Numbered from the stretch's first letter, positions 5,398-64,000 are shown. The stretch: 64,000 nucleotides of DNA from a bacterium (GCA_963675755.2 CAXXMD010000003.1:448001-512000), one strand, 5' to 3'. The notes: generated from the sequence alone by a model not told the origin. Numbers and translations are program-made.

Positions 5398-7316
5398 ATG
5401 AAAAAAATGCTCCTTTTATTCGTTCCAATTCTGCTGATCAACTGTTCCAAATCTTTAAAAACCGATTATCCTATACAGCCGGTCCCGTTTACGAACGTCC
5501 ATTTTAACGATTCATTCTGGCAGCCGCGCCTCGAAACCAACCGCACCGTTACCATACCCTTTGATTTCAAAAAATGCGAGGAAACCGGCCGTATCGACAA
5601 TTTCGCCATCGCCGGTGGTCTCAAGGAAGGCAAACACGAGGGCATGCGTTTATAACGATTCCGATGTCTTCAAGATCATCGAAGGCGCGTCGTATTCACT
5701 CAGCATGCACCCGGATCCCGAGCTGGACAAATATCTGGACGATCTCATACATAAAATTGCGGCTTCTCAGGAAGAAGACGGCTATATTTTCACTACCCGG
5801 ACCATTGATCCCACACGCGTTGCAGTTCGTTCAGGAGAAACCCGCTGGTCCTATGTGGCCATGAGTCACGAGTTGTACAACGCCGGTCACATGTACGAGG
5901 CTGCTGTTGCGCACTATCAGGCCACGGGCAAGCGTACGTTTCTGAATGTTGCCATTAAAAGCGCGGATTTGATCGAATCCACATTCGGTCCCGGCAAACG
6001 CATGGAGCCCCCCGGCCATCAGGAGATCGAAATCGGATTAACCAAGCTGTACAGGGTAACCGGAGAAAAAAAAATATTTAAAGCTGGCTAAATTCTTCCT
6101 GGACCAGCGCGGTAACAAAGAAAATCACGATCTGTACGGTGAATACAGCCAGGACCACCAGCCTGTCGTCAAACAAACCTGCCCCACCGGTCATGCGGTA
6201 CGTGCCGGCTATATGTATTCGGCAATGGCAGATGTAGCGGCAATAGAGGGAGATCAGGATTATATTTACGCCCTGGATACTATCTGGCAAAACACCGTCT
6301 ATACCCGTCTTTATCTTACCGGAGGAATTGGCGCAAGACATACCGGTGAAGCCTTTGGCGAAGAATATGAACTGCCCAACATGAGTGCCTATAATGAAAC
6401 CTGCGCCGCCATTGCCAACATGTTCTGGAACCAGCGTATGTTCCTGCTGCATGGTGATGCCAAATATATCGATGTTATGGAACGAACACTTTACAATGGA
6501 TTTCTTTCCGGCGTTTCTCTGGATGGTAACGAGTTCTTTTACCCCAATCCCCTGGAATCGGATGGTTCACACAGCCGCAGTCCCTGGTTCGATTGCGCCT
6601 GCTGCCCCGGAAACGTGGTCAGGTTTCTGCCCTCTCTGCCGGGTTACCAGTATGCCGTCAATCAGGACACCCTGTACGTCAATCTGTTCATAGGCGGAAC
6701 CGCTGACATTGAACTGGATGGGCAATCTATTCAAATCGAGCAAAACACAAAATATCCCTGGCAAGGCACAGTAGAGATCCTGCCGCAGCCGGCAAACAGC
6801 AGAGAATTTACACTATCCGTTCGTATTCCCGGGTGGGCCATAAACGCACCTGTTCCCGGAGACCTGTATCATTTCTTAACCGAATCCAATGCGAAACCAA
6901 CACTCCGGGTAAACGGAGAATTCGTAAACTATGACCTGCGCAAGGGATACGCGGATATCTCCCGGCAATGGCAAAAAGGCGATATTGTAACGCTGGAACT
7001 GCCCATGCCTGTCCGAAAAGTCCTGAGTAATGACAAGGTGGATGAAGACCGCGGCAAGCTTGCCCTGCAGCGCGGACCGCTGGTCTATTGCGCGGAATGG
7101 GTGGATAATGACGGACACGCACGTGATCTGCTCGTCCCCCAAAACACAGATTTTACCATAAACGCCCAACCCGATCTGCTGCATGGAATATATACCATCA
7201 CCGGACCGGTTAAATTACAAAACGGACGCAAACAGACCTTGACAGCCATCCCCTATTACGCATGGGCACACCGAGGCTCCGGCGACATGGCGGTTTGGAT
7301 GAAATATGAGGATTAA
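5398..7316 (+). CDS. Glycoside hydrolase family 127 (beta-L-arabinofuranosidase-like) lipoprotein, frameshifted twice
   Basis: Motifs NDSDVFK, HELYNAGH, GHQEIE, GHAVRAGY, NETCAA, CACCP, QRGPLVYCAE, IPYYAW. One extra T at about 5650 and one extra A in the A9 run 6066-6074 split it into three ORFs. Confidence 0.9.
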
Positions 7317-49014: not shown

Positions 49015-52000
49015 TTATATATGAATTTCTATATATTTTCCGGTAACTTTGTATTGTTTATTTTCCACAACCGGCAGTTTATGAACAGCCTGTATATAAT
49101 CATCCAACTGTTCAGCCTGGTATTGTTCACCCGTCTTGTAATCAATAATCTCAACATATCCGTCTTTTAAATTCACCATCATACGGTCAAGTCGCAATTC
49201 CTTGCCGGATTGAGTGTAAAGTGTATACTCGGTGAAAACCCGGTCCCAAACAGCGGCATCAAACAGTTCGGGATGTTGAGATACAACATTACGCGCATTC
49301 TGCATGAGTGATTCCAACTGTTCTATGGGCAGCAAATTACCAAAATACCCTAATGTCTGTTGCCGGGCAAACTCGAATTCCTTGTTTGTACCATAATGGA
49401 CGTATGACAGATAAAAATGGATGATATTCCCCTTGTCAATATCTCGATTTTTCAGGTAAACGCTTTTCAGGTCAATGTGTTCCATGCGCTGTAAATGCAG
49501 GGCATCCGGTTGTTTTAAAGGACGTCTGTTATAACTCAGATAATCCGGCAGCCAGGTATAATCAACCGTTTCCTTTTCATCTTTTACATGCTGAACAGGT
49601 ATAAACGAGCCGGAGGTCCAAACCGACTTGTTGGCTGTATTGTCTGCACCTGCCTCAAACCGCTGTACCCGGTTCAAAACCGATAAAAATAACAAGCGGT
49701 CAGATCGTATCTTTGTAGTATCATCGGGTAGACAATCTTTAATAAATTCAGATATACCTCCCTTTTTACCCAATACAAATTGAATATAGAGGTTTGTTTT
49801 GGCGCGAGTCAAAGCTACATAAATATTGTTCAACTCTTCAATAATATCACGTTTATCTTTTTGCTCAATCAACGGTGCATAATCCGTTAATTCAAGAATA
49901 TGATCATAATTCAATGTATATATGTAATGTAAAAGATGACTGAAATCCAGTTCATAACTCAGATAATACGAAATCTCTCCACTAAAATTCCCACCAGAGG
50001 GTGACAAATTCCAATAGAGGAACACATTATCATATTCCAGTCCTTTTGATTTATGGATAGTCAGCAAGGTAATGGCATTATATTCTTTGAGTCCAATCTG
50101 CTGAAACCGTTCATTCTGTTCGTTTTCCTGACAATATTCCAAAAAGCCTTTTAACGAATAATTGGCATCCGTTTGGGTGAATGCAGCAAGGATCTCCAGA
50201 AACCGGTTCAGATTCACCAGATCGTTTTCCTGCTTAAAGATACCGGTAGCGTTCCACTTTTCAATGACTTTTTGTGTAAACAATAGCAAATTGGGGTGTG
50301 CCGCAAACACTAATTCTTTGGCTAGCTGATAGATCTCATCCACTTTTTTCAATGCGTCAATACTGTCCAGGCTGCTGAAAAGATCACTGAGCGAATAGCC
50401 ATCCTTTGCATTGTCCCGAATGTACAACATGATTTTTTTCAAAGCTTCCGGAGACATTAAAACCAGATCAGAGCGTAAAAATCTCAGTAGATCATAAACA
50501 TCCTGATAAACCAGAAAACGAAACAGCATCATCAACGGGACGACAGTCCTGTGCTGCAATATGGAACCCGATGACTCGAGAATGTAATCAATATCCAGCT
50601 CATCCAAAACCGCGGCAATATGTTTCAGGTCACTGTTTTTACGGGCAAGCACAGCTGTTTTCTTTACATCCAGTTGACCCGACTGCAGCAGTGGCGCCAG
50701 GGTTTGGGTCACAAACTCTCGCAGTGCGTCTTCAACCGTAGAGATATCGTTATTATCATCCTTGAAATTGGCATAATTGCGTGCCTGAACTTTAATAAAT
50801 CCATCATCCGATGTTTTATGCACCTGCACCGGATCATAGGGCCAGTGGATATCCAGACTGGCATGCATATCGGTATCCATAAAAATATCATTGATAAAGT
50901 CCATAATCCGGCGGTAGCTGCGGTACGATGTATTGAGACTGAACTGATTGCAATCGTTCAAAACTGAGGGCATGGCCAAAAGCAGGTCGCGCTCACCACC
51001 ACGCCATCCATAAATGGATTGCTTCTCATCGCCCACAATGATCACACCGCCATATTCTTTGGCACCCATACCACTGGTAATCTCGTTGATAATTGGCAGC
51101 AGTATTTTGTATTGGATCATACTGGTGTCCTGGAACTCGTCAATAAGAATAAAGCGGATCTGCGCGGTCAGATATTCATAAAAGGCATTAGTCACCGAAA
51201 AATCATCAATCAATGAAAGATCAGGATCATAGAGATACTTGAACGTATAATACGATACATCACTATGGGTAAATCGTTTATCTCTGAATTTGATTTCGTC
51301 ATATTTTTCAAAAACCCGGTTTGCAATCAAGCGGATTTCATCCTGTTCTGCAAACAGTTCTTTCTCTAGAATAAAAGCAGCCAGATCTTTACGGCAATTT
51401 TCAAAATCAGCAATCAACGCTTCCTTGATATCCGCATAAGCCTTGCCGCGAAAGACTTTGGATCCGTCCCAAAAATACTCCATCCCCAACAGCTTTTTAT
51501 GGTGTTCTGAAACAATCTCCTGACCAAGATTATCCATAATGCTGGCAGCAAAAACCTGGCTGTCCAAATCAGCAGGACTCAGAAACATCTTTATGAAATC
51601 CATTTTAAAATATTGTGAATTGGTCAGATTCGGGTAAGAAGAACAGACCTCAGCCTCTAATCGACGCAACAACGCGGAAAAGGATTTGAAAAAGCGCTGA
51701 TACGCCTCTTTAATTTGCTGCTCCCGGTTTTTTGGATCAACCTGCGGTTGATCTTCCGCATCCATAAAATCAAAGATCCAGCGGTTCCGCAGCAACGATT
51801 CTATAAATTTCTGATAATCGGTTATAGTCTTTTTGTTTGCACGAAAGAAAAAGTCATGCATTAATTGTTGTGCCTGCGGATCACGCTCCTGCATCAGAGA
51901 ACTGAACACCTCTGCAAACACATCATCATGAATGGTATTTTCTATTTCATAATTGGCAATGCCAAGATAAGGCGCGATAATGGTTTTAAATATCTCGTTG

Positions 52001-52356
52001 GTAAAAGCGTCAATGGTGCTGATGCGGACCTTGTTTTTGTTAACCAGCATATCTTCATAGATCCGCTTTAAAACGGAACGGTCCTTGTCTGATATTTCAA
52101 GTCCCAAAATACTCTGCAAATTCGCCAGCAATTCTTTGCCGTCATCGTCCATCCGGATGATGTGGTGCAGATGCTCAAAAATCCTCTCCCGAATCTCTGA
52201 TGTGGCCTTTTTGGTAAAGGTAATTACCAGCATCTCGCTGTAATGGATACCCTGTTTATAATATTTCAACAGCAGTCCAATATATTCCAAAGACAACCGA
52301 TAGGTCTTGCCCGTACCCGCACTGGCACTGATGATCTTGTTCTCGAGACCGTTCAT
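49015..52356 (-). CDS. addA: AddA/RecB-like UvrD helicase-nuclease
   Basis: ASAGTGKT, IDEFQDTS, VGDEKQSIYGWRGG, TIHKSKGLE, YVALTRA, C-terminal RLDR..IIDYKTG. Confidence 0.85.
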   Translation of the reverse strand: MNGLENKIISASAGTGKTYRLSLEYIGLLLKYYKQGIHYSEMLVITFTKKATSEIRERIFEHLHHIIRMDDDGKELLANLQSILGLEISDKDRSVLKRIYEDMLVNKNKVRISTIDAFTNEIFKTIIAPYLGIANYEIENTIHDDVFAEVFSSLMQERDPQAQQLMHDFFFRANKKTITDYQKFIESLLRNRWIFDFMDAEDQPQVDPKNREQQIKEAYQRFFKSFSALLRRLEAEVCSSYPNLTNSQYFKMDFIKMFLSPADLDSQVFAASIMDNLGQEIVSEHHKKLLGMEYFWDGSKVFRGKAYADIKEALIADFENCRKDLAAFILEKELFAEQDEIRLIANRVFEKYDEIKFRDKRFTHSDVSYYTFKYLYDPDLSLIDDFSVTNAFYEYLTAQIRFILIDEFQDTSMIQYKILLPIINEITSGMGAKEYGGVIIVGDEKQSIYGWRGGERDLLLAMPSVLNDCNQFSLNTSYRSYRRIMDFINDIFMDTDMHASLDIHWPYDPVQVHKTSDDGFIKVQARNYANFKDDNNDISTVEDALREFVTQTLAPLLQSGQLDVKKTAVLARKNSDLKHIAAVLDELDIDYILESSGSILQHRTVVPLMMLFRFLVYQDVYDLLRFLRSDLVLMSPEALKKIMLYIRDNAKDGYSLSDLFSSLDSIDALKKVDEIYQLAKELVFAAHPNLLLFTQKVIEKWNATGIFKQENDLVNLNRFLEILAAFTQTDANYSLKGFLEYCQENEQNERFQQIGLKEYNAITLLTIHKSKGLEYDNVFLYWNLSPSGGNFSGEISYYLSYELDFSHLLHYIYTLNYDHILELTDYAPLIEQKDKRDIIEELNNIYVALTRAKTNLYIQFVLGKKGGISEFIKDCLPDDTTKIRSDRLLFLSVLNRVQRFEAGADNTANKSVWTSGSFIPVQHVKDEKETVDYTWLPDYLSYNRRPLKQPDALHLQRMEHIDLKSVYLKNRDIDKGNIIHFYLSYVHYGTNKEFEFARQQTLGYFGNLLPIEQLESLMQNARNVVSQHPELFDAAVWDRVFTEYTLYTQSGKELRLDRMMVNLKDGYVEIIDYKTGEQYQAEQLDDYIQAVHKLPVVENKQYKVTGKYIEIHI

Positions 52357-55226
52357 TATACAGCATCCCCCGAGGTAAAATTCTGTGCAAGATACAGATC
52401 TTTGCGTGTAATGTCCGGCATGTATTGCAGTTTGCTTTTTTGCTCTGCCAACGAGAATCCCTGTTCATTGAGCTTGCTGGCAATCTCGATCAAACTCTCG
52501 GCAAACGCATCGAAAAGGTCCTGCTTTGTTTTCTGTTTTGATCTGGCGGTAATATATTCCAGCAGTTCTTTTTTTTCTTTTTTCAAAACCTGGTAAAACC
52601 ATGATGAAACAGCATCCTGTTTTTCCGGTTCTTCAAGCAAATGATAAAACTGTTCATAGATAATCAACTGCTCTTTTTCAAACTGCCCTGTCTTGAAATC
52701 AAAAATATAATTCACTTCGTCGTCAGGATCAAAAATACGCAAATCCGCGCGTCCCCTGAACTGAAAGTCCAATTCCAGCACATTCTGCTCTGCCGGTAAA
52801 AATGTTTTATATCGTCTTTCCGCGGCGGTTCCTTCTTCCTCTTCGGGCATAATAACCAGCGACTTGCCAAACAGTCCTTGTTCAGTCAGCAGATCAAAAA
52901 AGCCAAGAAGCCCGTCTGCCAGGTTGGGTGCGGTAATATATTCAAAATATGAAAAGGTGTAATCATGCAATATACTGTAATAATACTTTGACCAGCGTAC
53001 CACATTCTGAATGGCCCGCATAACCAGCTCACGTTCAATGGGAGCATCAAAGGCAAAGACATCATCACTTTGCGGATGCATCAGCCGCCAGCATTCTGTG
53101 GCTACATCGTGGGCAATGTTTCCGATTAATCGGGCAGAAAAGTCCCGCTCAACAGTTTTGGGCTTTTCATCGATACGACAAAAACTGCGTACAAAATAAA
53201 GGAATGGATTCGTTTTCAAATCACGAAATGAGGTATAAGAAAGTCGAATTCGGCTGTCAGGATAATCTGTTTTTACATCCAGGGGGATACGGTAAAATTC
53301 CGGCGAGTAGATCTTTTTCCTGTCCACTTTATAATCCGCACAATCCAGTATCGTATCATATACAGGTTTATAATTATAACCTTGATCTTTAGTGTATTGC
53401 AAGACAGTAGCATCAAAATTTAGCATCAGTTCTTCTACAAATGAACTGACCTGCACATTATTTTCGATATTTTTCTGAGTATAAAGATATACATTTTTAC
53501 TGGCCAGCACCATACGATAAAAATAATACTGTTCTCTCAAACGGATATCATCATAAATTTTCAAGCCCATGTGCTTACGCTGCTGGTCTGTAAAAAGAAA
53601 TGGAGACAACCGCTGTGAAGGGATTTTACCCTCCATTACGTTCAACACCGCAACCGATTCATAAGCAATATTTCGGGTATCATTCAGGTTGGTGATCTCT
53701 ATTCTTGACCCACCGGGCTCTGTATTCCATTGCCAGGTTTTGGCTTTCATATAATCAAGAATAATCCTGAGCAGGCCCGCACCGGTTTTATATGTCATTA
53801 GATTCGGATTCTGAACATTTAAATAGGTATCCCAATCGGTCACAATACCAATAGATTCTATGGATTCCAAATCCGCAAGGAGTCGATAAAACACATCCAG
53901 TATTGTTGAATGCTCTTTTTCATGCCGGCTCACAATCTGCTTGATTCGAATACCGGCTTCGCTGTCTATAAAGTCTATCCACTCGGTAAGCGATTTCAAA
54001 CGGGCCATTTTTTCAAGCAATACAACAAGCGTATTGCTCAAGGCCAGCACCTGTTCATCCTTAACAAACGTATTCAGTTCTGTATCCATATCCAGATATT
54101 TGTATTCACGGTCAAGCAAGCCGTACAATACATTTAGTATATGTTCACGATTGCTGTCACCGGACGATGGTACAAAATAGTCTACAAATCCGGGTACCAA
54201 TACAGCAGACAATATAGAATCTACAGGCAGCAGATATTTTTTCTGTTTTTCCTCATAGATAATGGAATTGAGAGCCGTATACAATGCGGTAAAAAACCGG
54301 TATATTGAAGATTGAGTGAACGAGACCGACTCGCCGAGGTTAAATTTTTCCGGAGAAACCATTGCAGAATAGGGATTGCGGTTAAATGCAGGATCAATGA
54401 TTTGCTTTATCTTTTGAGAATCCAATGTACGAGACATTGAGAGTATCATTGAAAAATCATTGGCGCACTCGGTGATATTTATATTTTCAACGGCAAATGC
54501 TTCTGTCAGATCATGCAGACCAAAAGGTTGAATATTCAACGATTCCTGATCCAACAGTTTTTCAGGCAATTGATAATACAGTACAACCTGCTTGTCCAAC
54601 TGTTCCAACTGCTTGATAATATTTTTTTCCAAATTGGTATAATAAAACTGGTTGGCAAAAACAAATCGATCATATTTTTCTAGAAATCCGGAATCAGGGT
54701 TGTCAGTATTGCGCACAAAGATCAGATCATCAAAACCTTTTTCAGTGATAAAGGCTTTGTAACGGGCTTTGATCTCTAATAATCGGTTAAAATTCTCAAT
54801 CTGCCAATCCAGAATATCAACCAGATTTCCATCAATCAACGTGTCTAAAATTTTGTCCGGTACACACTCGTCATTAAATTCTTCCCAAAGGGTAAAAAAC
54901 TGGTGCGCCAGTTCTATAGCCTGAAAATAAGAATGGACCCTGAAAACTTTTTTATCTTCTGTAGAAAGCACCGCGTAAAACGCGAGTGTTCGTTTCTCTT
55001 CGCGCAGCAGACTTTTTTGTGTTAGATAGAGCAGGCCTTTAAGTTCTTCAATGGTAAGAAACCGGGTATCGCTAAAATCCCACTGCTGTTGAAAAATTCT
55101 GAGTGCCTTTTTTTTACTGTTTTCATTGGGAAAGACAAAAACAGTCCCATCAAAAGGCTCTTTTTCCAGCAGATGTGTAATAACATCTGTTGAAAAGTCA
55201 CAAAACTCGAATTCTTTTATAGACAT
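52356..55226 (-). CDS. addB: AddB-like subunit (inactive helicase fold plus PD-(D/E)XK nuclease)
   Basis: VFVFPN N-terminus, EGKIP, SYTS, IGNIAH, RGRADL..IFDFKTG. TAATG overlap with addA. Confidence 0.75.
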   Translation of the reverse strand: MSIKEFEFCDFSTDVITHLLEKEPFDGTVFVFPNENSKKKALRIFQQQWDFSDTRFLTIEELKGLLYLTQKSLLREEKRTLAFYAVLSTEDKKVFRVHSYFQAIELAHQFFTLWEEFNDECVPDKILDTLIDGNLVDILDWQIENFNRLLEIKARYKAFITEKGFDDLIFVRNTDNPDSGFLEKYDRFVFANQFYYTNLEKNIIKQLEQLDKQVVLYYQLPEKLLDQESLNIQPFGLHDLTEAFAVENINITECANDFSMILSMSRTLDSQKIKQIIDPAFNRNPYSAMVSPEKFNLGESVSFTQSSIYRFFTALYTALNSIIYEEKQKKYLLPVDSILSAVLVPGFVDYFVPSSGDSNREHILNVLYGLLDREYKYLDMDTELNTFVKDEQVLALSNTLVVLLEKMARLKSLTEWIDFIDSEAGIRIKQIVSRHEKEHSTILDVFYRLLADLESIESIGIVTDWDTYLNVQNPNLMTYKTGAGLLRIILDYMKAKTWQWNTEPGGSRIEITNLNDTRNIAYESVAVLNVMEGKIPSQRLSPFLFTDQQRKHMGLKIYDDIRLREQYYFYRMVLASKNVYLYTQKNIENNVQVSSFVEELMLNFDATVLQYTKDQGYNYKPVYDTILDCADYKVDRKKIYSPEFYRIPLDVKTDYPDSRIRLSYTSFRDLKTNPFLYFVRSFCRIDEKPKTVERDFSARLIGNIAHDVATECWRLMHPQSDDVFAFDAPIERELVMRAIQNVVRWSKYYYSILHDYTFSYFEYITAPNLADGLLGFFDLLTEQGLFGKSLVIMPEEEEGTAAERRYKTFLPAEQNVLELDFQFRGRADLRIFDPDDEVNYIFDFKTGQFEKEQLIIYEQFYHLLEEPEKQDAVSSWFYQVLKKEKKELLEYITARSKQKTKQDLFDAFAESLIEIASKLNEQGFSLAEQKSKLQYMPDITRKDLYLAQNFTSGDAV

Positions 55227-58694: not shown

Positions 58695-60032
58695 TTGGAG
58701 GGCGACTTTATAAAAAAAAATATTACAGAAAAAATTTCATTTTTCATGTTCATCATCTCTCTTTTGTGTATGGCTTATGGTTATGGATACCTGACTCACG
58801 AATTAAAATTATTCCCGTATTATCAGATAAAGAATGCAAACAGATTCAGAGTTGAATTTATAGCCAAGCTCAAAGGACAAAAACAGTGGTTTTATCAACC
58901 CACAAAATATAACCAAAATGTCCCTGTTTATGAGCATATTGCCGCATACAATGCACCTACCATGTTTTCCTGCATAGGTAAAGATAAACATTTATATATA
59001 AAAATTGTCAATATGGATGGGAGCCTTGTGCACCAATGGAAAACCGACTGGTTTGATCTCTGGCCCAAAGATGCTAAAATACATAAACGTTTTGTCCCCA
59101 AAAAACGACCCGGTACAAACATTCACGGTTTAGAGATTATGGACAATGGCGATATAATTTTTATATTTGAAGATATTGGTATGGTATGTCTGGATGTATG
59201 TGGAAATTTAAAATGGCATATCAACTACTCGTTCCACCATTCCCTGCATCGTGATGATGAAGGTAATTTTTGGGTTAGTGGAAACATCTGGCATGAATCC
59301 GGTATCAAAAACTATTCATATTTAAATCCCGTTGTATTAGAACCAACTGTGGTCAAGGTGTCTCCGAATGGCAAGATCCTCTCAGAAACTTCAGTGTTTG
59401 ACATTCTACGCCATAACGAGCTTGAATCTTTTTTGATCATGCAAACCAAAGCCAATATTACTCCGCAAAACTCGGGGGATATACTGCACCTGAACGATGT
59501 TGAACCCTTTCCTACATCTATGGAACCCGGATTTTTTGGCCCCGACGATGTAATGATCTCGATACGAAACATGAACACCGTGCTGGTCTATAACCAGGAA
59601 ACACTGGAAGTTAAATATCAACGTACGGGCAAGTTCATTAGACAACATGATCCGGACTTTATTGACGGCAACACAATATCCTTGTATGACAATAACAATT
59701 TGGATATAAAAAATGACTCGGTACAAAGCAGAATCGTCATGTTCCATCTGCCGGAAGACCGGGCACAGGTTATCTATAGCGGCAGCAAAGAGGAACCTTT
59801 TTTCTCTAAAATCATGGGCAAGCATCAATGGCTTCCAAATGAAAATCTGCTAATTACAGATTCGCTATCCGGGCGTGTATTTGAAATCGACAAATCGGGT
59901 AAAATTGTCTGGGAATATTTTAATATTGTAGAAAAAGGGTATACAGGTATTATAGGCGAAGCAAAACGTATTTCTCCGGATTTTAATAAAGCGTTTTTTG
60001 AAAAAAGAAAAAGTGACTGCGCAGACAACTAA
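58695..60032 (+). CDS. Membrane-anchored arylsulfotransferase (ASST)-family beta-propeller, paralogue 1
   Basis: N-terminal TM; His motifs FHHSLH, DILHLNDVE and RQHDPDF. The start is uncertain. Confidence 0.8.
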   Translation: MEGDFIKKNITEKISFFMFIISLLCMAYGYGYLTHELKLFPYYQIKNANRFRVEFIAKLKGQKQWFYQPTKYNQNVPVYEHIAAYNAPTMFSCIGKDKHLYIKIVNMDGSLVHQWKTDWFDLWPKDAKIHKRFVPKKRPGTNIHGLEIMDNGDIIFIFEDIGMVCLDVCGNLKWHINYSFHHSLHRDDEGNFWVSGNIWHESGIKNYSYLNPVVLEPTVVKVSPNGKILSETSVFDILRHNELESFLIMQTKANITPQNSGDILHLNDVEPFPTSMEPGFFGPDDVMISIRNMNTVLVYNQETLEVKYQRTGKFIRQHDPDFIDGNTISLYDNNNLDIKNDSVQSRIVMFHLPEDRAQVIYSGSKEEPFFSKIMGKHQWLPNENLLITDSLSGRVFEIDKSGKIVWEYFNIVEKGYTGIIGEAKRISPDFNKAFFEKRKSDCADN

Positions 60033-60047
60033 CAACAAGGATCGGTC

Positions 60048-61364
60048 TTGAAAAATTTTAAAGAAAACCTCCCCAAATACATGTTCATGTTCTCAATTGT
60101 CTTTATGGCTTTTATTTATGGCTATATATGCAAAGAATTAAACCTGTTTCCATCAAAGCAGATACAAAGTGCAAATGCCTTTCGAGTATCATTAATGCAG
60201 CAATTTGCCGGAGAAAAACAATGGTATTACCAACCCACTGAGGAGAAACTAAACGTACCCATTTACAATAAAGACATGGCGTTTAATGGTTCTACCATAT
60301 TTTCCTGTGTTGGCGAAGACAATTATTTATTTGTAAAAATTGTTGATATGGACGGCAGCCTGATCCACCAATGGAAAATCGACTGGTTCGAGATTTGGCC
60401 GGATTGTGAGCATGTGCCCGAATCAGATAAACCAAAATCAAGACCCGGCACTCAAATCCAGGGAATCACATTATTAGACAATGGAGATCTGGTATTCAAC
60501 TTTTCCGGATTGGGGCTGGTACGCATGGATCCATGCGGTAAAGTTGTGTGGCGTCTTGCACATCGCACCCACCATTCAATCCATCAGGATGAGCAGGGAA
60601 ACCTGTGGGTTCCCAGAGATATTTTCCATCAATCCAAAGTTGCGGATTATCCATTCCTAAAACCAATATTTTTAGAGCCAACCATCCTGAAAATATCGCC
60701 AGAGGGTAAAGTACTCAAAGAAATTTCCATGTTAGACGTACTGGTAAGGAACAATTACAACAGTTTGTTAGTTATGTCTACCAAAGCCCGTACCGATGTA
60801 AGAACATCCGGCGATATATTACACCTGAACGATGTGGAAACATTTCCGGATTCTTTGAAAGAAGGCTTTTTCACTAAAGGAGACATTCTGGTCTCTCTGC
60901 GCAACATAAATACGGTCCTAGTATTCAATGAAGCAGACCTGAAAATAAAGTATATTAAAATCGGTGATCTAGTTAGACAGCATGATGCGGATTTTATTGA
61001 TGGCAATACGATCTCGGTTTATGATAACAACAATATTGCTCAAAAAGATAAATTCATGTACAGCAATATTACAATACTCGATGCGGTAACCAACCAAACC
61101 CGTATCTATTACAAAGGCACACCGGAAGCACCTTTTTTCTCCAACTTGATGGGCCGTCATCAATGGTTACCCAATGGCAACATGTTAATCACAGAATCTT
61201 CAACTGGTCGAGCTTTTGAGATTAATGATACTGGCAAAATCGTATGGGAATATATTAATATTGTTGAAAAAGGATATGTGGGCATTATGGAAGAAGCCAT
61301 ACGCATCTCCCCTGTTTTTAATCGGGACTTTTTTAAAAAGAAAATTGCTGAATGTGCTGATTAA
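60048..61364 (+). CDS. Membrane-anchored arylsulfotransferase (ASST)-family beta-propeller, paralogue 2
   Basis: THHSIH, DILHLNDVE, RQHDADF; colinear with paralogue 1. Confidence 0.8.
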   Translation: MKNFKENLPKYMFMFSIVFMAFIYGYICKELNLFPSKQIQSANAFRVSLMQQFAGEKQWYYQPTEEKLNVPIYNKDMAFNGSTIFSCVGEDNYLFVKIVDMDGSLIHQWKIDWFEIWPDCEHVPESDKPKSRPGTQIQGITLLDNGDLVFNFSGLGLVRMDPCGKVVWRLAHRTHHSIHQDEQGNLWVPRDIFHQSKVADYPFLKPIFLEPTILKISPEGKVLKEISMLDVLVRNNYNSLLVMSTKARTDVRTSGDILHLNDVETFPDSLKEGFFTKGDILVSLRNINTVLVFNEADLKIKYIKIGDLVRQHDADFIDGNTISVYDNNNIAQKDKFMYSNITILDAVTNQTRIYYKGTPEAPFFSNLMGRHQWLPNGNMLITESSTGRAFEINDTGKIVWEYINIVEKGYVGIMEEAIRISPVFNRDFFKKKIAECAD

Positions 61365-61488
61365 TGAATTGTCCAAAATGATTCCAGAATAATCATCACA
61401 GGAATGCAAACAATCAAAAAAATATGAAATAAATAATAAATTTTGTATATTTAATGTTATTACAATTGATATGTTTAGGAGTTACATC

Positions 61489-61725
61489 ATGAAAAATACA
61501 TCGAAAATATTATTGGTTTTCTCAGCCATTTTACTATTCCTGGGCCCCCAAAATGCTGCAGCATATATAGGCCCCGGAACCGGCTTGTCTGCAATTGGTG
61601 CGTTTCTTGCCTTTATTTTTGGAATCATAGTAGCCATTTTGGGGTTCTTGTGGTATCCCTTTAAAAGAATTTTCGGCAAAAAGAAATCTCAGGAACCAGA
61701 TGAAATTAAAGGTGAAAACGAATAA
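61489..61725 (+). CDS. Small membrane protein with an AYIGPGTG motif
   Basis: AGGAG RBS, signal peptide ending AAA, YIGPGTG, one TM helix, basic tail. Confidence 0.8.
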   Translation: MKNTSKILLVFSAILLFLGPQNAAAYIGPGTGLSAIGAFLAFIFGIIVAILGFLWYPFKRIFGKKKSQEPDEIKGENE

Positions 61726-62105
61726 TGACTATTGTAGGCGCTATCATTCTGGTTGTTGGATTTATTGCCATCATAAATATATTTGATCTTGTAGGAAAAA
61801 GCAAAAAAGTAATAGATGTGGCAAAGCTCTCTGCACATGTATTTCAAAATCCGGATATGAGTGATCTGGAAAAAGAAAAAGCCATGCAAAAGAATTCTCT
61901 CATTTTATTCAAATATTTTTTTATCATAGTGGCAATCTGTGCAATAGCCATTTTTGCTCCCCTGGGTATTATTTGGCTGATCCAATTGACGGGTGTAACA
62001 ACCGTTGAAAATGTACTCCACGAAACATTTTCATGGCAATTCATTGTAATCAGTTCTATCTTAATCATCGGCATAACCTGGTTGTTACGGAGAAAAAATG
62101 TCTGA
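61725..62105 (+). CDS. Three-TM membrane protein (hypothetical)
   Basis: Coupled to both neighbours by overlaps; MSDLEKEKAMQ loop. Confidence 0.75.
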   Translation: MTIVGAIILVVGFIAIINIFDLVGKSKKVIDVAKLSAHVFQNPDMSDLEKEKAMQKNSLILFKYFFIIVAICAIAIFAPLGIIWLIQLTGVTTVENVLHETFSWQFIVISSILIIGITWLLRRKNV

Positions 62106-63177
62106 TTTTGAAAACAAGTACTCCTTTATAGAAAAAATGCTTCACGATGTAGCCTTTAAAACCTTTCCCTCCCAAATTGCAATGTCTGACCTTGAAAGCA
62201 GATTAAACAAAAAAAAACTACAAGACATCCGGATTGAGCAGCCAACCTTTATTACCGCACTGCCCCGCGCCGGTACAACCTTGTTGCTTGAGCTTGCTGT
62301 AGAAACCCGCGAGTTTGTTTCACATACCTATCGGGATATGCCATTTTTATTAACCCCCATGTTCTGGAACAGTTTTTCAAAAATTTTTAAACAATCAGAT
62401 ACTCCCCGCGAACGTGCTCATGGCGATGGCATGCTGGTTAGTGTTGACAGTCCCGAAGCCTTTGAAGAAATCATCTGGAAAGCTTTTTGGCCGTCCCGTT
62501 ACAGAAAAGATAAAATTGTACCCTGGGCAGAACCAAGCTATCCGGAATTTGAAGCATTCCTTCGCGATCATATTGTCAAGCTCATTGCCTTGCGTGGTGA
62601 AGGTGATAAAGACAGACGTTACATATCTAAAAACAATCTCAACATTTCACGGTTAAAATATATTAGCAAAATTTTCCTCGATGCAATCATCATTGTTCCT
62701 TTTCGAGATCCCATACAGCACGCGTCTTCACTGTTACGCCAGCATCTTAATTTTATCAACATTCATAAAGAAGATGCTTTTGCAAAAAAATATATGGCTG
62801 CAATAGGGCATTTTGATTTTGGCGAAAACCTGAAACCCGTTGATTTTGATAACTGGCTCGACTCGTCCGCTATCAAGGATCCGCAAAAAATCGATTTCTG
62901 GCTGCAATACTGGTCCGATTCTTATAACTATATGATGAATAATAGTAATAATAATATTCAATTTATAGCATACGATGCCATGTGCGAAAATCCATCCAAA
63001 CACATGAAAACCTTTGCGGAAATGCTAAAGCTGAAAAATCCGGACGTCCTTTTACAACAAGCTGAAAGGATTGCACCACCCAAACCTTATCAGGTAGAGT
63101 TGGAATCTATTGATGCTACAATTCTGGACAAAATAAATTCTACCCATTCTCGCTTGAAAGAAATTTCCAAATTTTAA
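62098..63177 (+). CDS. PAPS-dependent sulfotransferase family protein
   Basis: 5'-PSB loop ITALPRAGTTLL and 3'-PB motif FRDPIQHASS; no signal peptide. Confidence 0.85.
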   Translation: MSDFENKYSFIEKMLHDVAFKTFPSQIAMSDLESRLNKKKLQDIRIEQPTFITALPRAGTTLLLELAVETREFVSHTYRDMPFLLTPMFWNSFSKIFKQSDTPRERAHGDGMLVSVDSPEAFEEIIWKAFWPSRYRKDKIVPWAEPSYPEFEAFLRDHIVKLIALRGEGDKDRRYISKNNLNISRLKYISKIFLDAIIIVPFRDPIQHASSLLRQHLNFINIHKEDAFAKKYMAAIGHFDFGENLKPVDFDNWLDSSAIKDPQKIDFWLQYWSDSYNYMMNNSNNNIQFIAYDAMCENPSKHMKTFAEMLKLKNPDVLLQQAERIAPPKPYQVELESIDATILDKINSTHSRLKEISKF

Positions 63178-63336: not shown

Positions 63337-63717
63337 ATGGAATTACTGAACTATTACACAGGATGGGCCAGTATTATACTGGGCTTTGTAGCAGGGGCGG
63401 TGATTGGTTTGTTTTTTTACAAAGACGATTGGGCTGGCGGCTATAATTCCTGGCAAAGAAGAATGATGCGGTTGGGACACATCTCTTTTTTCGGACTCGG
63501 TTTTATAAACCTGGTTTTTGCACTAAGCATCAACAATTTTCAAATCCATTTAACTACAGATCTGCCGTTTTACTTGCTGGCCGCGGGTAATATTTTAATG
63601 CCAACAGTTTGCTTTTTATCCGCGTACAGGAAAAATTTCAGACAACTCTTTCCGCTGCCTGTTGCTTGTATGTTAATTGGTACCTTAATCTTTATTTTGA
63701 ACGGGGGCTTATTATGA
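63337..63717 (+). CDS. Four-TM membrane protein (hypothetical)
   Basis: GGYNSWQRRMMRLGHISFFGLG; ATGA overlap with the next gene. Confidence 0.75.
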   Translation: MELLNYYTGWASIILGFVAGAVIGLFFYKDDWAGGYNSWQRRMMRLGHISFFGLGFINLVFALSINNFQIHLTTDLPFYLLAAGNILMPTVCFLSAYRKNFRQLFPLPVACMLIGTLIFILNGGLL

Positions 63718-64000
63718 AAATCGCACTAACCGCAATGAGTGGAATACGCGCTTATGATCAGGAACTATTGGAGCTGGGTCTGACATTACCCGGATTTGTT
63801 GAAAGAAGTAAAGTAATTGCATCTTTACCGAGCCTGGGTTTATTGACACTTGCAGGTATGACACCCAGCCACCATGACGTGGAATATATTGAAGTTCCTG
63901 ATATTGAAAACAAATCCGAAATAGTAGACAGGTTGAAAAATTTTGATCTGGTTGCAATTTCAAGTTTTAGTGCACAAATTAAAGAAGCGTACGAATTGGG
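63714..64000 (+). CDS. B12-binding-domain radical SAM protein, N-terminal part (runs off the window)
   Basis: Not in the ORF track. Manual translation: MKIALTAMSGIRAYDQELLELGLTLPGFVERSKVIASLPSLGLLTLAGMTP...FDLVAISSFSAQIKEAYEL. The CxxxCxxC motif is not visible in the window. Confidence 0.75.
   Translation, partial: MKIALTAMSGIRAYDQELLELGLTLPGFVERSKVIASLPSLGLLTLAGMTPSHHDVEYIEVPDIENKSEIVDRLKNFDLVAISSFSAQIKEAYEL

Follow-up and report, generated by a model that had tools for sequence, protein, structure and literature searches.

Candidate sulfate relay across the bacterial membrane encoded by a conserved module of aryl-sulfate sulfotransferase, microprotein, three-helix membrane protein and PAPS-type sulfotransferase

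In caprazamycin biosynthesis, Cpz8, an enzyme dependent on 3'-phosphoadenosine 5'-phosphosulfate (PAPS), acts in series with the aryl-sulfate sulfotransferase (ASST) Cpz4 by way of a shuttle molecule (PMC6731281, which like the other papers cited here is drawn on in extract), and the sulfate acceptor of Cpz4 is a hydroxyl group on a sugar (PMC13426309). The extract of the latter paper also reports that ASSTs sulfate tyrosine peptides such as Leu-enkephalin and kyotorphin and that the natural acceptors and role of most aryl sulfotransferases (ASTs) are unknown. In the DltX and PatA systems, a membrane peptide uses its terminal Tyr to carry a group to a ping-pong enzyme on the outer side (PMC12148441). 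Here we describe a locus at positions 58695 to 63177 of a 64,000-nucleotide stretch of bacterial DNA (GCA_963675755.2, CAXXMD010000003.1:448001-512000, hereafter the window), which encodes two ASSTs, a microprotein, a membrane protein with three transmembrane helices (3-TM) and a PAPS-type sulfotransferase (ST). Judged by sequence, the ASSTs and the ST are new members of known families, and the module they belong to resembles both Cpz8/Cpz4 and DltX and fails membership of both. No description of the module or of its YxGPG motif was found in the literature searched, a scope that most subscription papers lay beyond, in agreement with the first-pass annotation of the window, which knew of no described pathway with this five-gene layout.

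The genes of the locus and the predicted parts of the microprotein are as follows:

58695-60032, plus strand: ASST1, membrane-anchored aryl-sulfate sulfotransferase of 445 aa with one N-terminal helix and a beta-propeller (PF14269, 123.7 bits)
60048-61364, plus strand: ASST2, membrane-anchored aryl-sulfate sulfotransferase of 438 aa (PF14269, 131.3 bits)
61489..61563, plus strand: signal peptide predicted for the microprotein, which has A-A-A at its end as a signal-peptidase-type site and is presumed to be cleaved there (hydropathy and homologue conservation)
61564..61725, plus strand: mature microprotein of 53 aa, candidate sulfotyrosine carrier, Tyr codon at 61564-61566 (Y-x-G-P-G conservation)
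61725-62105, plus strand: 3-TM membrane protein of 126 aa, no named family (hydropathy, charge bias and ST fusions)
62098-63177, plus strand: ST, PAPS-type sulfotransferase of 359 aa from a distinct clade, no membrane helix (PF13469, 40.4 bits)

The family cut-offs were 27 bits for PF14269 and 27 bits for PF13469. The microprotein and the 3-TM protein scored below every Pfam and NCBIfam cut-off, their look-alikes in the atlas were unnamed clusters, and a word search with the 3-TM sequence matched 4 proteins. A close relative (L008, ST 93% identical) carries the same five genes intact, so they are not assembly artefacts, and the five reading frames are real and intact. The stop codon of the microprotein and the start of the 3-TM gene share a TAATG (61723-61727) and the 3-TM and ST genes overlap by 8 nt, which fits the translational coupling of these three genes proposed in the first-pass annotation. 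The 78 aa given there for the microprotein hold for a start at ATG 61489 (span 61489-61725), where an AGGAG ribosome site is located, and become 84 aa if translation begins at ATG 61471.

A profile built from 41 ST homologues yielded 183 relatives in species-representative genomes; the survey covered the 80 highest-ranking of these, each with flanks of up to 10 kb. Sixty-three loci with at least 2.5 kb upstream formed the assessable set and 17 shorter ones were set aside. Local profiles identified an ASST in 66 of the 80 loci, the microprotein in 72, the 3-TM protein in 73 and the four together in 61; in the assessable set the corresponding numbers were 59, 62, 59 and 55 of 63. Judged by record title, the loci were distributed over more than ten phyla, among them Cyanobacteria, Planctomycetota, Verrucomicrobiota, Alpha- and Gammaproteobacteria, Bacteroidota, Chloroflexota, Gemmatimonadota, Thermodesulfobacteriota, Acidobacteriota, Omnitrophota and Latescibacterota. 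Four of the 63 had no ASST match; in two of these (L035 and L087) the contig stops at most 311 nt downstream, where the ASST sometimes sits, and the sole microprotein miss (L053) had a gap of Ns at the expected position.

Thirty-one plasmid records had an ASST match, and all seven with an ST match fell among them. The microprotein accompanied the ASST in each of these seven, the cassette being compact in six and the microprotein of the seventh being located 19 kb off, by a cysNC-type gene in a polysaccharide region. Hand-picked controls consisted of five of the 24 other ASST records, with more distant ASSTs, and two more distant STs. The microprotein or 3-TM gene was present in none of the seven control loci, and the N-terminal helix was absent from four of the five control ASSTs. 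The association of ASST, ST, microprotein and 3-TM protein is thus specific to this clade. The cassette is self-contained and probably mobile. Cultured environmental hosts of the compact cassette included Paracoccus saliphilus DSM 18447 and Novosphingobium capsulatum. Support for monophyly of the cassette ASSTs against the five controls was low (0.49). The distance matrices of the four parts were correlated over the 63 loci (r 0.43-0.84), which was not counted as co-evolution since kinship alone yields the same correlation.

The co-occurrence foreseen in the first-pass annotation was borne out by the assessable loci, the plasmids and two types of gene fusion, although not as the five-gene layout with paired ASSTs that it had described. 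At least two ASST matches were found in only nine of the 68 loci with at least 1 kb upstream, one of which (L052) looks like a single split gene. In an ASST tree the pair from the window (51% identical to each other) had the pair of L008 as its only companions (support 0.999), and the members of most other pairs were sisters too. The second ASST is a local duplication, and the conserved module has four components. The two ASSTs of the window probably serve two acceptor positions.

ASST2 carries the motif residues H175/H176, H259, N261, R285 and H312 together with a Cys163/Cys436 pair, and ASST1, numbered by ungapped alignment with ASST2, has H181/H182, H265, N267, R291 and H318 with Cys169/Cys442. 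Among 65 ASST homologues H175/H176, H259, N261 and H312 were invariant and R285 was kept in at least 90%. H312 aligned with His436 of Escherichia coli AssT, and the remaining residues were matched by motif order to AssT positions 252, 356, 358 and 374 (numbers from the extract of PMC13426309). A model of ASST2 (pLDDT 94) gave Cpz4 (9kf6/9kf4) and then AssT (3ets/3elq) as Foldseek ranks 1-9 (E 1e-16 to 7e-11), and Cpz4 was also the nearest solved match of the ASST sequence profile. Profiles were needed here, as single-sequence searches of the PDB gave no match for ASST2 and weak matches for the ST. AssT (3elq) shares the propeller fold and the His/His-x-Asn/Arg/His active site and differs in being encoded with DsbL/DsbI (PMC13426309, in extract), whereas the cassette ASST is anchored by a single helix, about 440 aa long, of the PF14269 type and genetically tied to a PAPS enzyme.

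One N-terminal hydrophobic helix was present in 82 of 82 near-full-length cassette ASSTs. The Cys of a D/N-x-C-G motif and a C-terminal Cys were both present in 23, both missing in 51 and single in 7 of 81 proteins (kin included), a pattern that a disulfide formed in an oxidising compartment would give. The catalytic domains accordingly look extracytoplasmic, and the earlier description of two anchored paralogues with intact His motifs, whose catalytic domains were expected on the outer side, agrees with the helix, the retained motif residues and the co-varying Cys pair. Distant ASSTs in haloarchaea, Salipiger and Methylosinus (L092, L093, L095 and L096) were mostly anchorless and located beside sulfatases or ABC transporters, which suggests that they form a separate sulfur-scavenging group.

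The ST contains a loop at 53-61, and R57, G59, T60, T61, K178, R203 and S211 were invariant in 41 homologues. We take these to be the 5'-phosphosulfate-binding (5'-PSB) loop and the Arg/Ser of the 3'-phosphate-binding (3'-PB) site, with the PAPS-binding roles that go with these names. PAPS is made in the cytoplasm. From its family and motifs the ST would use PAPS, and hydropathy identified no hydrophobic helix in it. By fold, the VIA Z scores were 17.8 for Stf9, 16.8 for Stf1, 15.2-15.8 for the tyrosylprotein sulfotransferases (TPSTs, 13-15% identity) and 10.5 for Cpz8 (rank 46 of 50), with 6-15% identity overall, and the best PDB sequence matches of the ST profile were to TPST1, which were weak (E 3e-5). 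The modelled fold would allow a peptide-Tyr substrate.

The microprotein was represented by 77 homologues that share a leader ending in Ala, the mature start Y-x-G-P-G-x-G, one Gly/Ala/Ser-rich helix, a W-Y/F-P hinge and a basic tail. Tyr, Pro and Gly of the motif never varied among the 77, Ala occupied position -1 in 75 of them and position -3 in 53, and Y1, P4, G5 and W30 were invariant in 65 aligned sequences. The YIGPGTG motif singled out by the first-pass annotation is thus replaced by a conserved Y-x-G-P-G directly following Ala, whose Tyr is predicted to start the mature chain (Y1), with about nine residues outside the helix. Tyr1 was kept in 77 of 77 locus homologues, with a search pattern that allowed F, W or H. 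The hinge Tyr, on the other hand, was replaced by Phe in 8 of the 77 and in 22 of the top 150 library matches, and since Tyr1 is never Phe where the hinge tolerates it, the Tyr1 hydroxyl, and not the ring alone, appears to be under selection. Two further matches fell outside the pattern, one cut by a contig end and one with Tyr in a variant motif. The family was large, with 848 library clusters at E <=1e-10 and 2360 at 0.001.

Lys or Arg ahead of the hinge occurred in 0 of 77 homologues, and the next 12 residues averaged 5.7 K/R. The absence of basic residues before the hinge and their density after it, together with ST fusions that place the C-terminus in the cytoplasm, point to an N-out/C-in topology. 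A hydrophobic leader core was identified in 60 of 76 homologues, and the other 16 had a short or polar leader, mostly still ending in Ala. Microproteins without a hydrophobic signal peptide, mostly with Ala before Tyr1, were found at L070:512-691, L076:9395-9577, L079:2297-2479 and L084:9247 and in L042 and L043. These leader-poor forms suggest a different protease or an unprocessed form; the processing of TatA by a rhomboid protease is a parallel.

The top 150 of the 2360 microprotein library matches were near-standalone proteins. When longer proteins were searched for YxGPG, all 6 matches among 8000 crowded candidates were either fusions to the ST or, in two cases, microproteins extended at the N-terminus, and the 1.59 Mb of DNA fetched for the loci, once scanned, showed YxGPG or YxDPG tails in no new type. 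The idea that such tails carry other anionic groups in other operons was consequently unsupported in the library and DNA scans. A protein with an antiporter domain followed by the microprotein (P0205) occurred once only and, being probably a chimera, was not considered further. A complex prediction for ASST2 with the mature microprotein scored 0.01 against a mark of 0.32 and weighs neither way.

The 3-TM protein consists of helix 1, a charged helical loop with D47/K50/E51, helices 2 and 3 and a C-terminus, of which charge bias places the loop (21-61) and the C-terminus inside. K50 and P79 were invariant. In 45 of 80 loci the 3-TM protein was fused to the N-terminus of the ST, as it was in 28 proteins among the 120 ST homologues ranked highest, and four database proteins (P0127-P0130) were microprotein-ST fusions without the 3-TM part. 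The latter would tie the C-terminus of the microprotein to the side of the ST, the cytoplasm. Since the ST is fused to, or located beside, the 3-TM protein or the microprotein, it would always be membrane-tethered, the 3-TM protein serving as its anchor and possibly as a conduit. Proteins of the Oxa1 superfamily consist of a helix, a cytoplasmic hairpin and two helices. A search of the 3-TM protein against the Pfam families of this superfamily (EMC3/TMCO1/DUF106) gave no match in 65 members at E 0.01 or in 8 proteins at E 10, and no PDB sequence match was found below E 2, so that an Oxa1/DUF106 identity is unsupported by sequence.

The four genes very probably make up one sulfuryl-transfer pathway, and it is likely that this pathway delivers sulfate outward. 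For its course, we give an even chance to a relay from PAPS through Tyr1-O-sulfate on the microprotein and His312 of the ASST to a hydroxyl of an envelope glycan, a scheme that starts from the observed linkage, fusions, conservation and folds and infers from these a topology, a direction, a carrier and an acceptor. With the 3-TM protein or a fused microprotein keeping it on the cytoplasmic side of the membrane, the ST would take the sulfuryl group from PAPS and transfer it to the Tyr1 hydroxyl at the N-terminus of the microprotein, giving an aryl sulfate. In this role the microprotein would carry sulfate as DltX carries D-alanine. At the outer face the sulfotyrosine tail would pass the group to His312 of the membrane-anchored ASST by the ping-pong chemistry of that family, and the ASST would hand it to a glycan or glycolipid outside the cytoplasm, on one of its hydroxyls; to go by the neighbouring genes, this acceptor would vary by host. 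The tail could be recharged by dipping, short and uncharged and rich in Gly and Pro, through a groove at the 3-TM/ST interface, or each microprotein could receive sulfate a single time, while its tail is still to be exported. The transmembrane relay from PAPS to the ASSTs suggested by the first-pass annotation is therewith retained as the best reading, in view of the linkage, the fusions and the location of the ASSTs, and the carrier, left general there, is narrowed to Tyr1 as a candidate. Only tentatively do we extend this to a new kind of group-transfer machine free of MBOAT proteins, in which the cytoplasmic, TPST-like ST would recharge the Tyr tail again and again through a groove of a minimal insertase-like 3-TM protein and the tail would be the physiological donor of a large ASST clade.

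The DltB/DltX/DltD and PatA/PatB systems resemble the module in that a microprotein of the membrane, its terminal Tyr invariant, comes between one transferase fed from the cytoplasm and another, of ping-pong type, on the outside (PMC12148441, in extract). DltX differs in having a C-terminal FxYxxF, whereas the Tyr of the module is the first mature residue of an N-terminal YxGPG, and in having MBOAT and SGNH partners and carrying an acyl group, whereas the module is without either and the group would be sulfate. No MBOAT or SGNH family was found among the conserved or nearest neighbours, and the one MBOAT gene near a microprotein was on plasmid pSC52_6 only.

Several observations weigh against the tyrosine relay. 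Tyr1 and the ST would lie on opposite sides of the membrane and a known transporter or MBOAT protein is absent from the module, so that the charging of Tyr1 by the ST followed by hand-over to the ASST at the outer face is the weakest step, and a carrier charged only once would be costly because ST-microprotein fusions exist. The 3-TM protein is missing beside the ST in L028, L034, L080, L081 and L086, where the microprotein directly precedes the ST, and in Paroceanicella profunda (L004:14195-14914) a 239-aa membrane protein, for which no homology to the 3-TM protein was detected, replaces it between microprotein and ST; the 3-TM protein is for these reasons not an obligatory conduit. The ST is nearer to the mycobacterial Stf9 and Stf1 than to the TPSTs, at 12-15% identity, and because the former rank higher its fold does not fix a peptide substrate. 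The retention of Tyr1 in 150 of 150 top library matches was obtained with a ranking profile that favours Tyr, and the best 80 of the 183 ST relatives include kin. L014 and L081 had no ASST within 10 kb on either side and are true local absences. On a Sphingomonas daechungensis plasmid an orphan microprotein (L088:11983-12192) faces a Core-2/I-branching (GT14-type) gene, and genes for ST, ASST and 3-TM protein are all missing from the 24 kb around it. On the side of the acceptor, a glycan gene was found in only 21 of 44 loci of at least 15 kb (a seed search without background control), no conserved acceptor gene was found among the surveyed loci, and the neighbours in the window are not glycan genes.

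The topology problem would be removed if the carrier were a lipid-soluble small phenol, such as a quinol or an aryl lipid, that would be sulfated by the ST at the inner leaflet and then cross the membrane itself, the microprotein and 3-TM protein being a scaffold or gate and Tyr1 a binding residue. This is possible, if rather unlikely. Such a shuttle has a precedent in the triketide pyrone of Cpz8/Cpz4 (PMC6731281, in extract), a system with the nearest solved ASST fold in which, as here (59 of 63 loci and seven of seven plasmids), a PAPS enzyme and an ASST are encoded together, and a membrane-tethered ST nearest to the mycobacterial Stf enzymes would suit it. In contrast to what this alternative calls for, no shuttle-making synthase was conserved near the module among the 705 clustered neighbours or the 132 nearest neighbours scanned. 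The module further departs from Cpz8/Cpz4 in that the ST is not Cpz8-like (Z 10.5), the ASST is membrane-anchored and apparently outside, and two unnamed membrane families belong to the core. A small phenol would also leave unexplained why Tyr1 is never Phe and why it is placed exactly at the processed N-terminus.

The microprotein could instead be an end product similar to RaxX, sulfated on Tyr by the ST before export and then displayed, with the ASST editing, recharging or removing the sulfate. RaxST, a cytoplasmic enzyme, sulfates the neighbouring peptide RaxX before export (source drawn on in extract), and the leader-plus-core layout, the TPST-like fold of the ST and the absence of an ASST near L014 and L081 would fit. 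The relay proposed here would share with RaxST/RaxX and the TPSTs the PAPS-dependent Tyr sulfation of a small neighbouring peptide, and TPST1/2 are among the nearest ST folds. The substrate here, however, would remain membrane-embedded and lacks acidic residues near its Tyr; it comes together with an ASST, and the module has no type I exporter. With an ASST carrying the full catalytic set in 59 of 63 loci, about nine residues outside the helix, frequent glycan-assembly neighbours and ST-microprotein fusions, we regard an end product as improbable.

A two-step relay at the membrane but confined to its cytoplasmic side, with the Tyr tail and the propeller of the ASST turned inward and lipid-linked glycan precursors sulfated before flipping, would need no crossing, and the topology assigned above rests on hydropathy, charge and Cys pairing. 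Most microproteins have an A-x-A signal peptide, however, basic residues before the hinge are lacking (0 of 77), the ASST Cys pair co-varies and a second enzyme would be needless where PAPS is at hand, making this quite improbable. Least probable of all is an inward relay in which the ASST strips environmental aryl sulfates and passes the group by way of the microprotein to a reversed ST that regenerates PAPS for sulfur scavenging. It fits the same parts and topology, and some distant ASSTs are beside sulfatases or ABC transporters. PAPS is, however, the higher-energy donor, so that reversal would need activated aryl sulfates, genes for APS kinase or CysD, which make PAPS, occur beside cassette loci, and the scavenging-type ASSTs are those without the cassette.

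Genes around the cassette were varied. Clustering of 705 neighbour proteins identified no family common to more than 10 of the 80 loci, so the cassette fits varied contexts. Glycan-assembly families were matched by 21 of 53 multi-helix neighbours, consisting of 11 GT-C type, three Wzy, three Wzx, three OpgH-like GT2 and one Wzz. An APS kinase was located near 5 of 80 loci, and CysD neighbours were also present. In L040 (4151-9348), L071 and L056 the cassette directly follows opgG/opgH-like genes, and Methylophaga loci adjoin opgGH, hinting at sulfated osmoregulated periplasmic glucans. Membrane proteins of 5-10 helices and 370-630 aa without a glycosyltransferase Pfam match flank the cassette in L011, L014, L030, L031, L033, L039, L047, L050, L083 and L084. 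For those of L047 and L084 a local GT-C profile gave weak matches (E 2e-4 to 3e-4), and it is possible that these flanking proteins are unrecognised GT-C enzymes. Membrane-linked sulfation of a surface glycan has been described for the Halobacterium N-glycan proteins VNG1056C/VNG1057C (PMC11980604, in extract); these have an alkaline-phosphatase/sulfatase fold, which none of the four parts of the module has. Halobacterium Agl30/31 were likewise considered and have a different fold.

The cassette has a GC content of 37.9% as against 42.0% in the remaining window. Translation of ASST1 may begin at ATA 58710, which has a GGAGG upstream, instead of TTG 58695, and L008 is arranged alike. A promoter and terminator scan was at chance level (14 versus 20 expected and 5 versus 4.8 expected). 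A CPBP protease gene is located upstream of the cassette and genes for a four-helix protein and a B12 radical SAM protein are located downstream. The four-helix protein (63337-64000, 126 aa, no named family) has an ATGA overlap with the B12-binding radical SAM gene, which is cut by the window end; as parts of the module the two were rejected, the pair being shared with L008 only. Elsewhere in the window, a GH127 glycoside hydrolase gene (5400-7316) has two frameshifts (5561-6091, 6213-7316 and an upstream piece in another frame), which may be sequencing indels or mark a pseudogene. A UvrD-type helicase and PD-(D/E)XK nuclease pair on the minus strand (49015-55226) is presumably AddAB-like.

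To our knowledge, the route by which bacterial polymers on the outer side of the membrane come to be sulfated is an open question. The module defines two unnamed protein families and proposes a physiological ASST donor, a protein-bound sulfotyrosine. If the tyrosine relay is true, it would be a hitherto undescribed way of cell-surface sulfation and would widen the idea of a tyrosine shuttle, known for acyl groups from DltX/PatA, to include sulfate. It would also provide a portable route for sulfation of outer glycans, including periplasmic glucans, in cyanobacteria, planctomycetes, proteobacteria and others, and a four-gene cassette useful for the production of sulfated polysaccharides.

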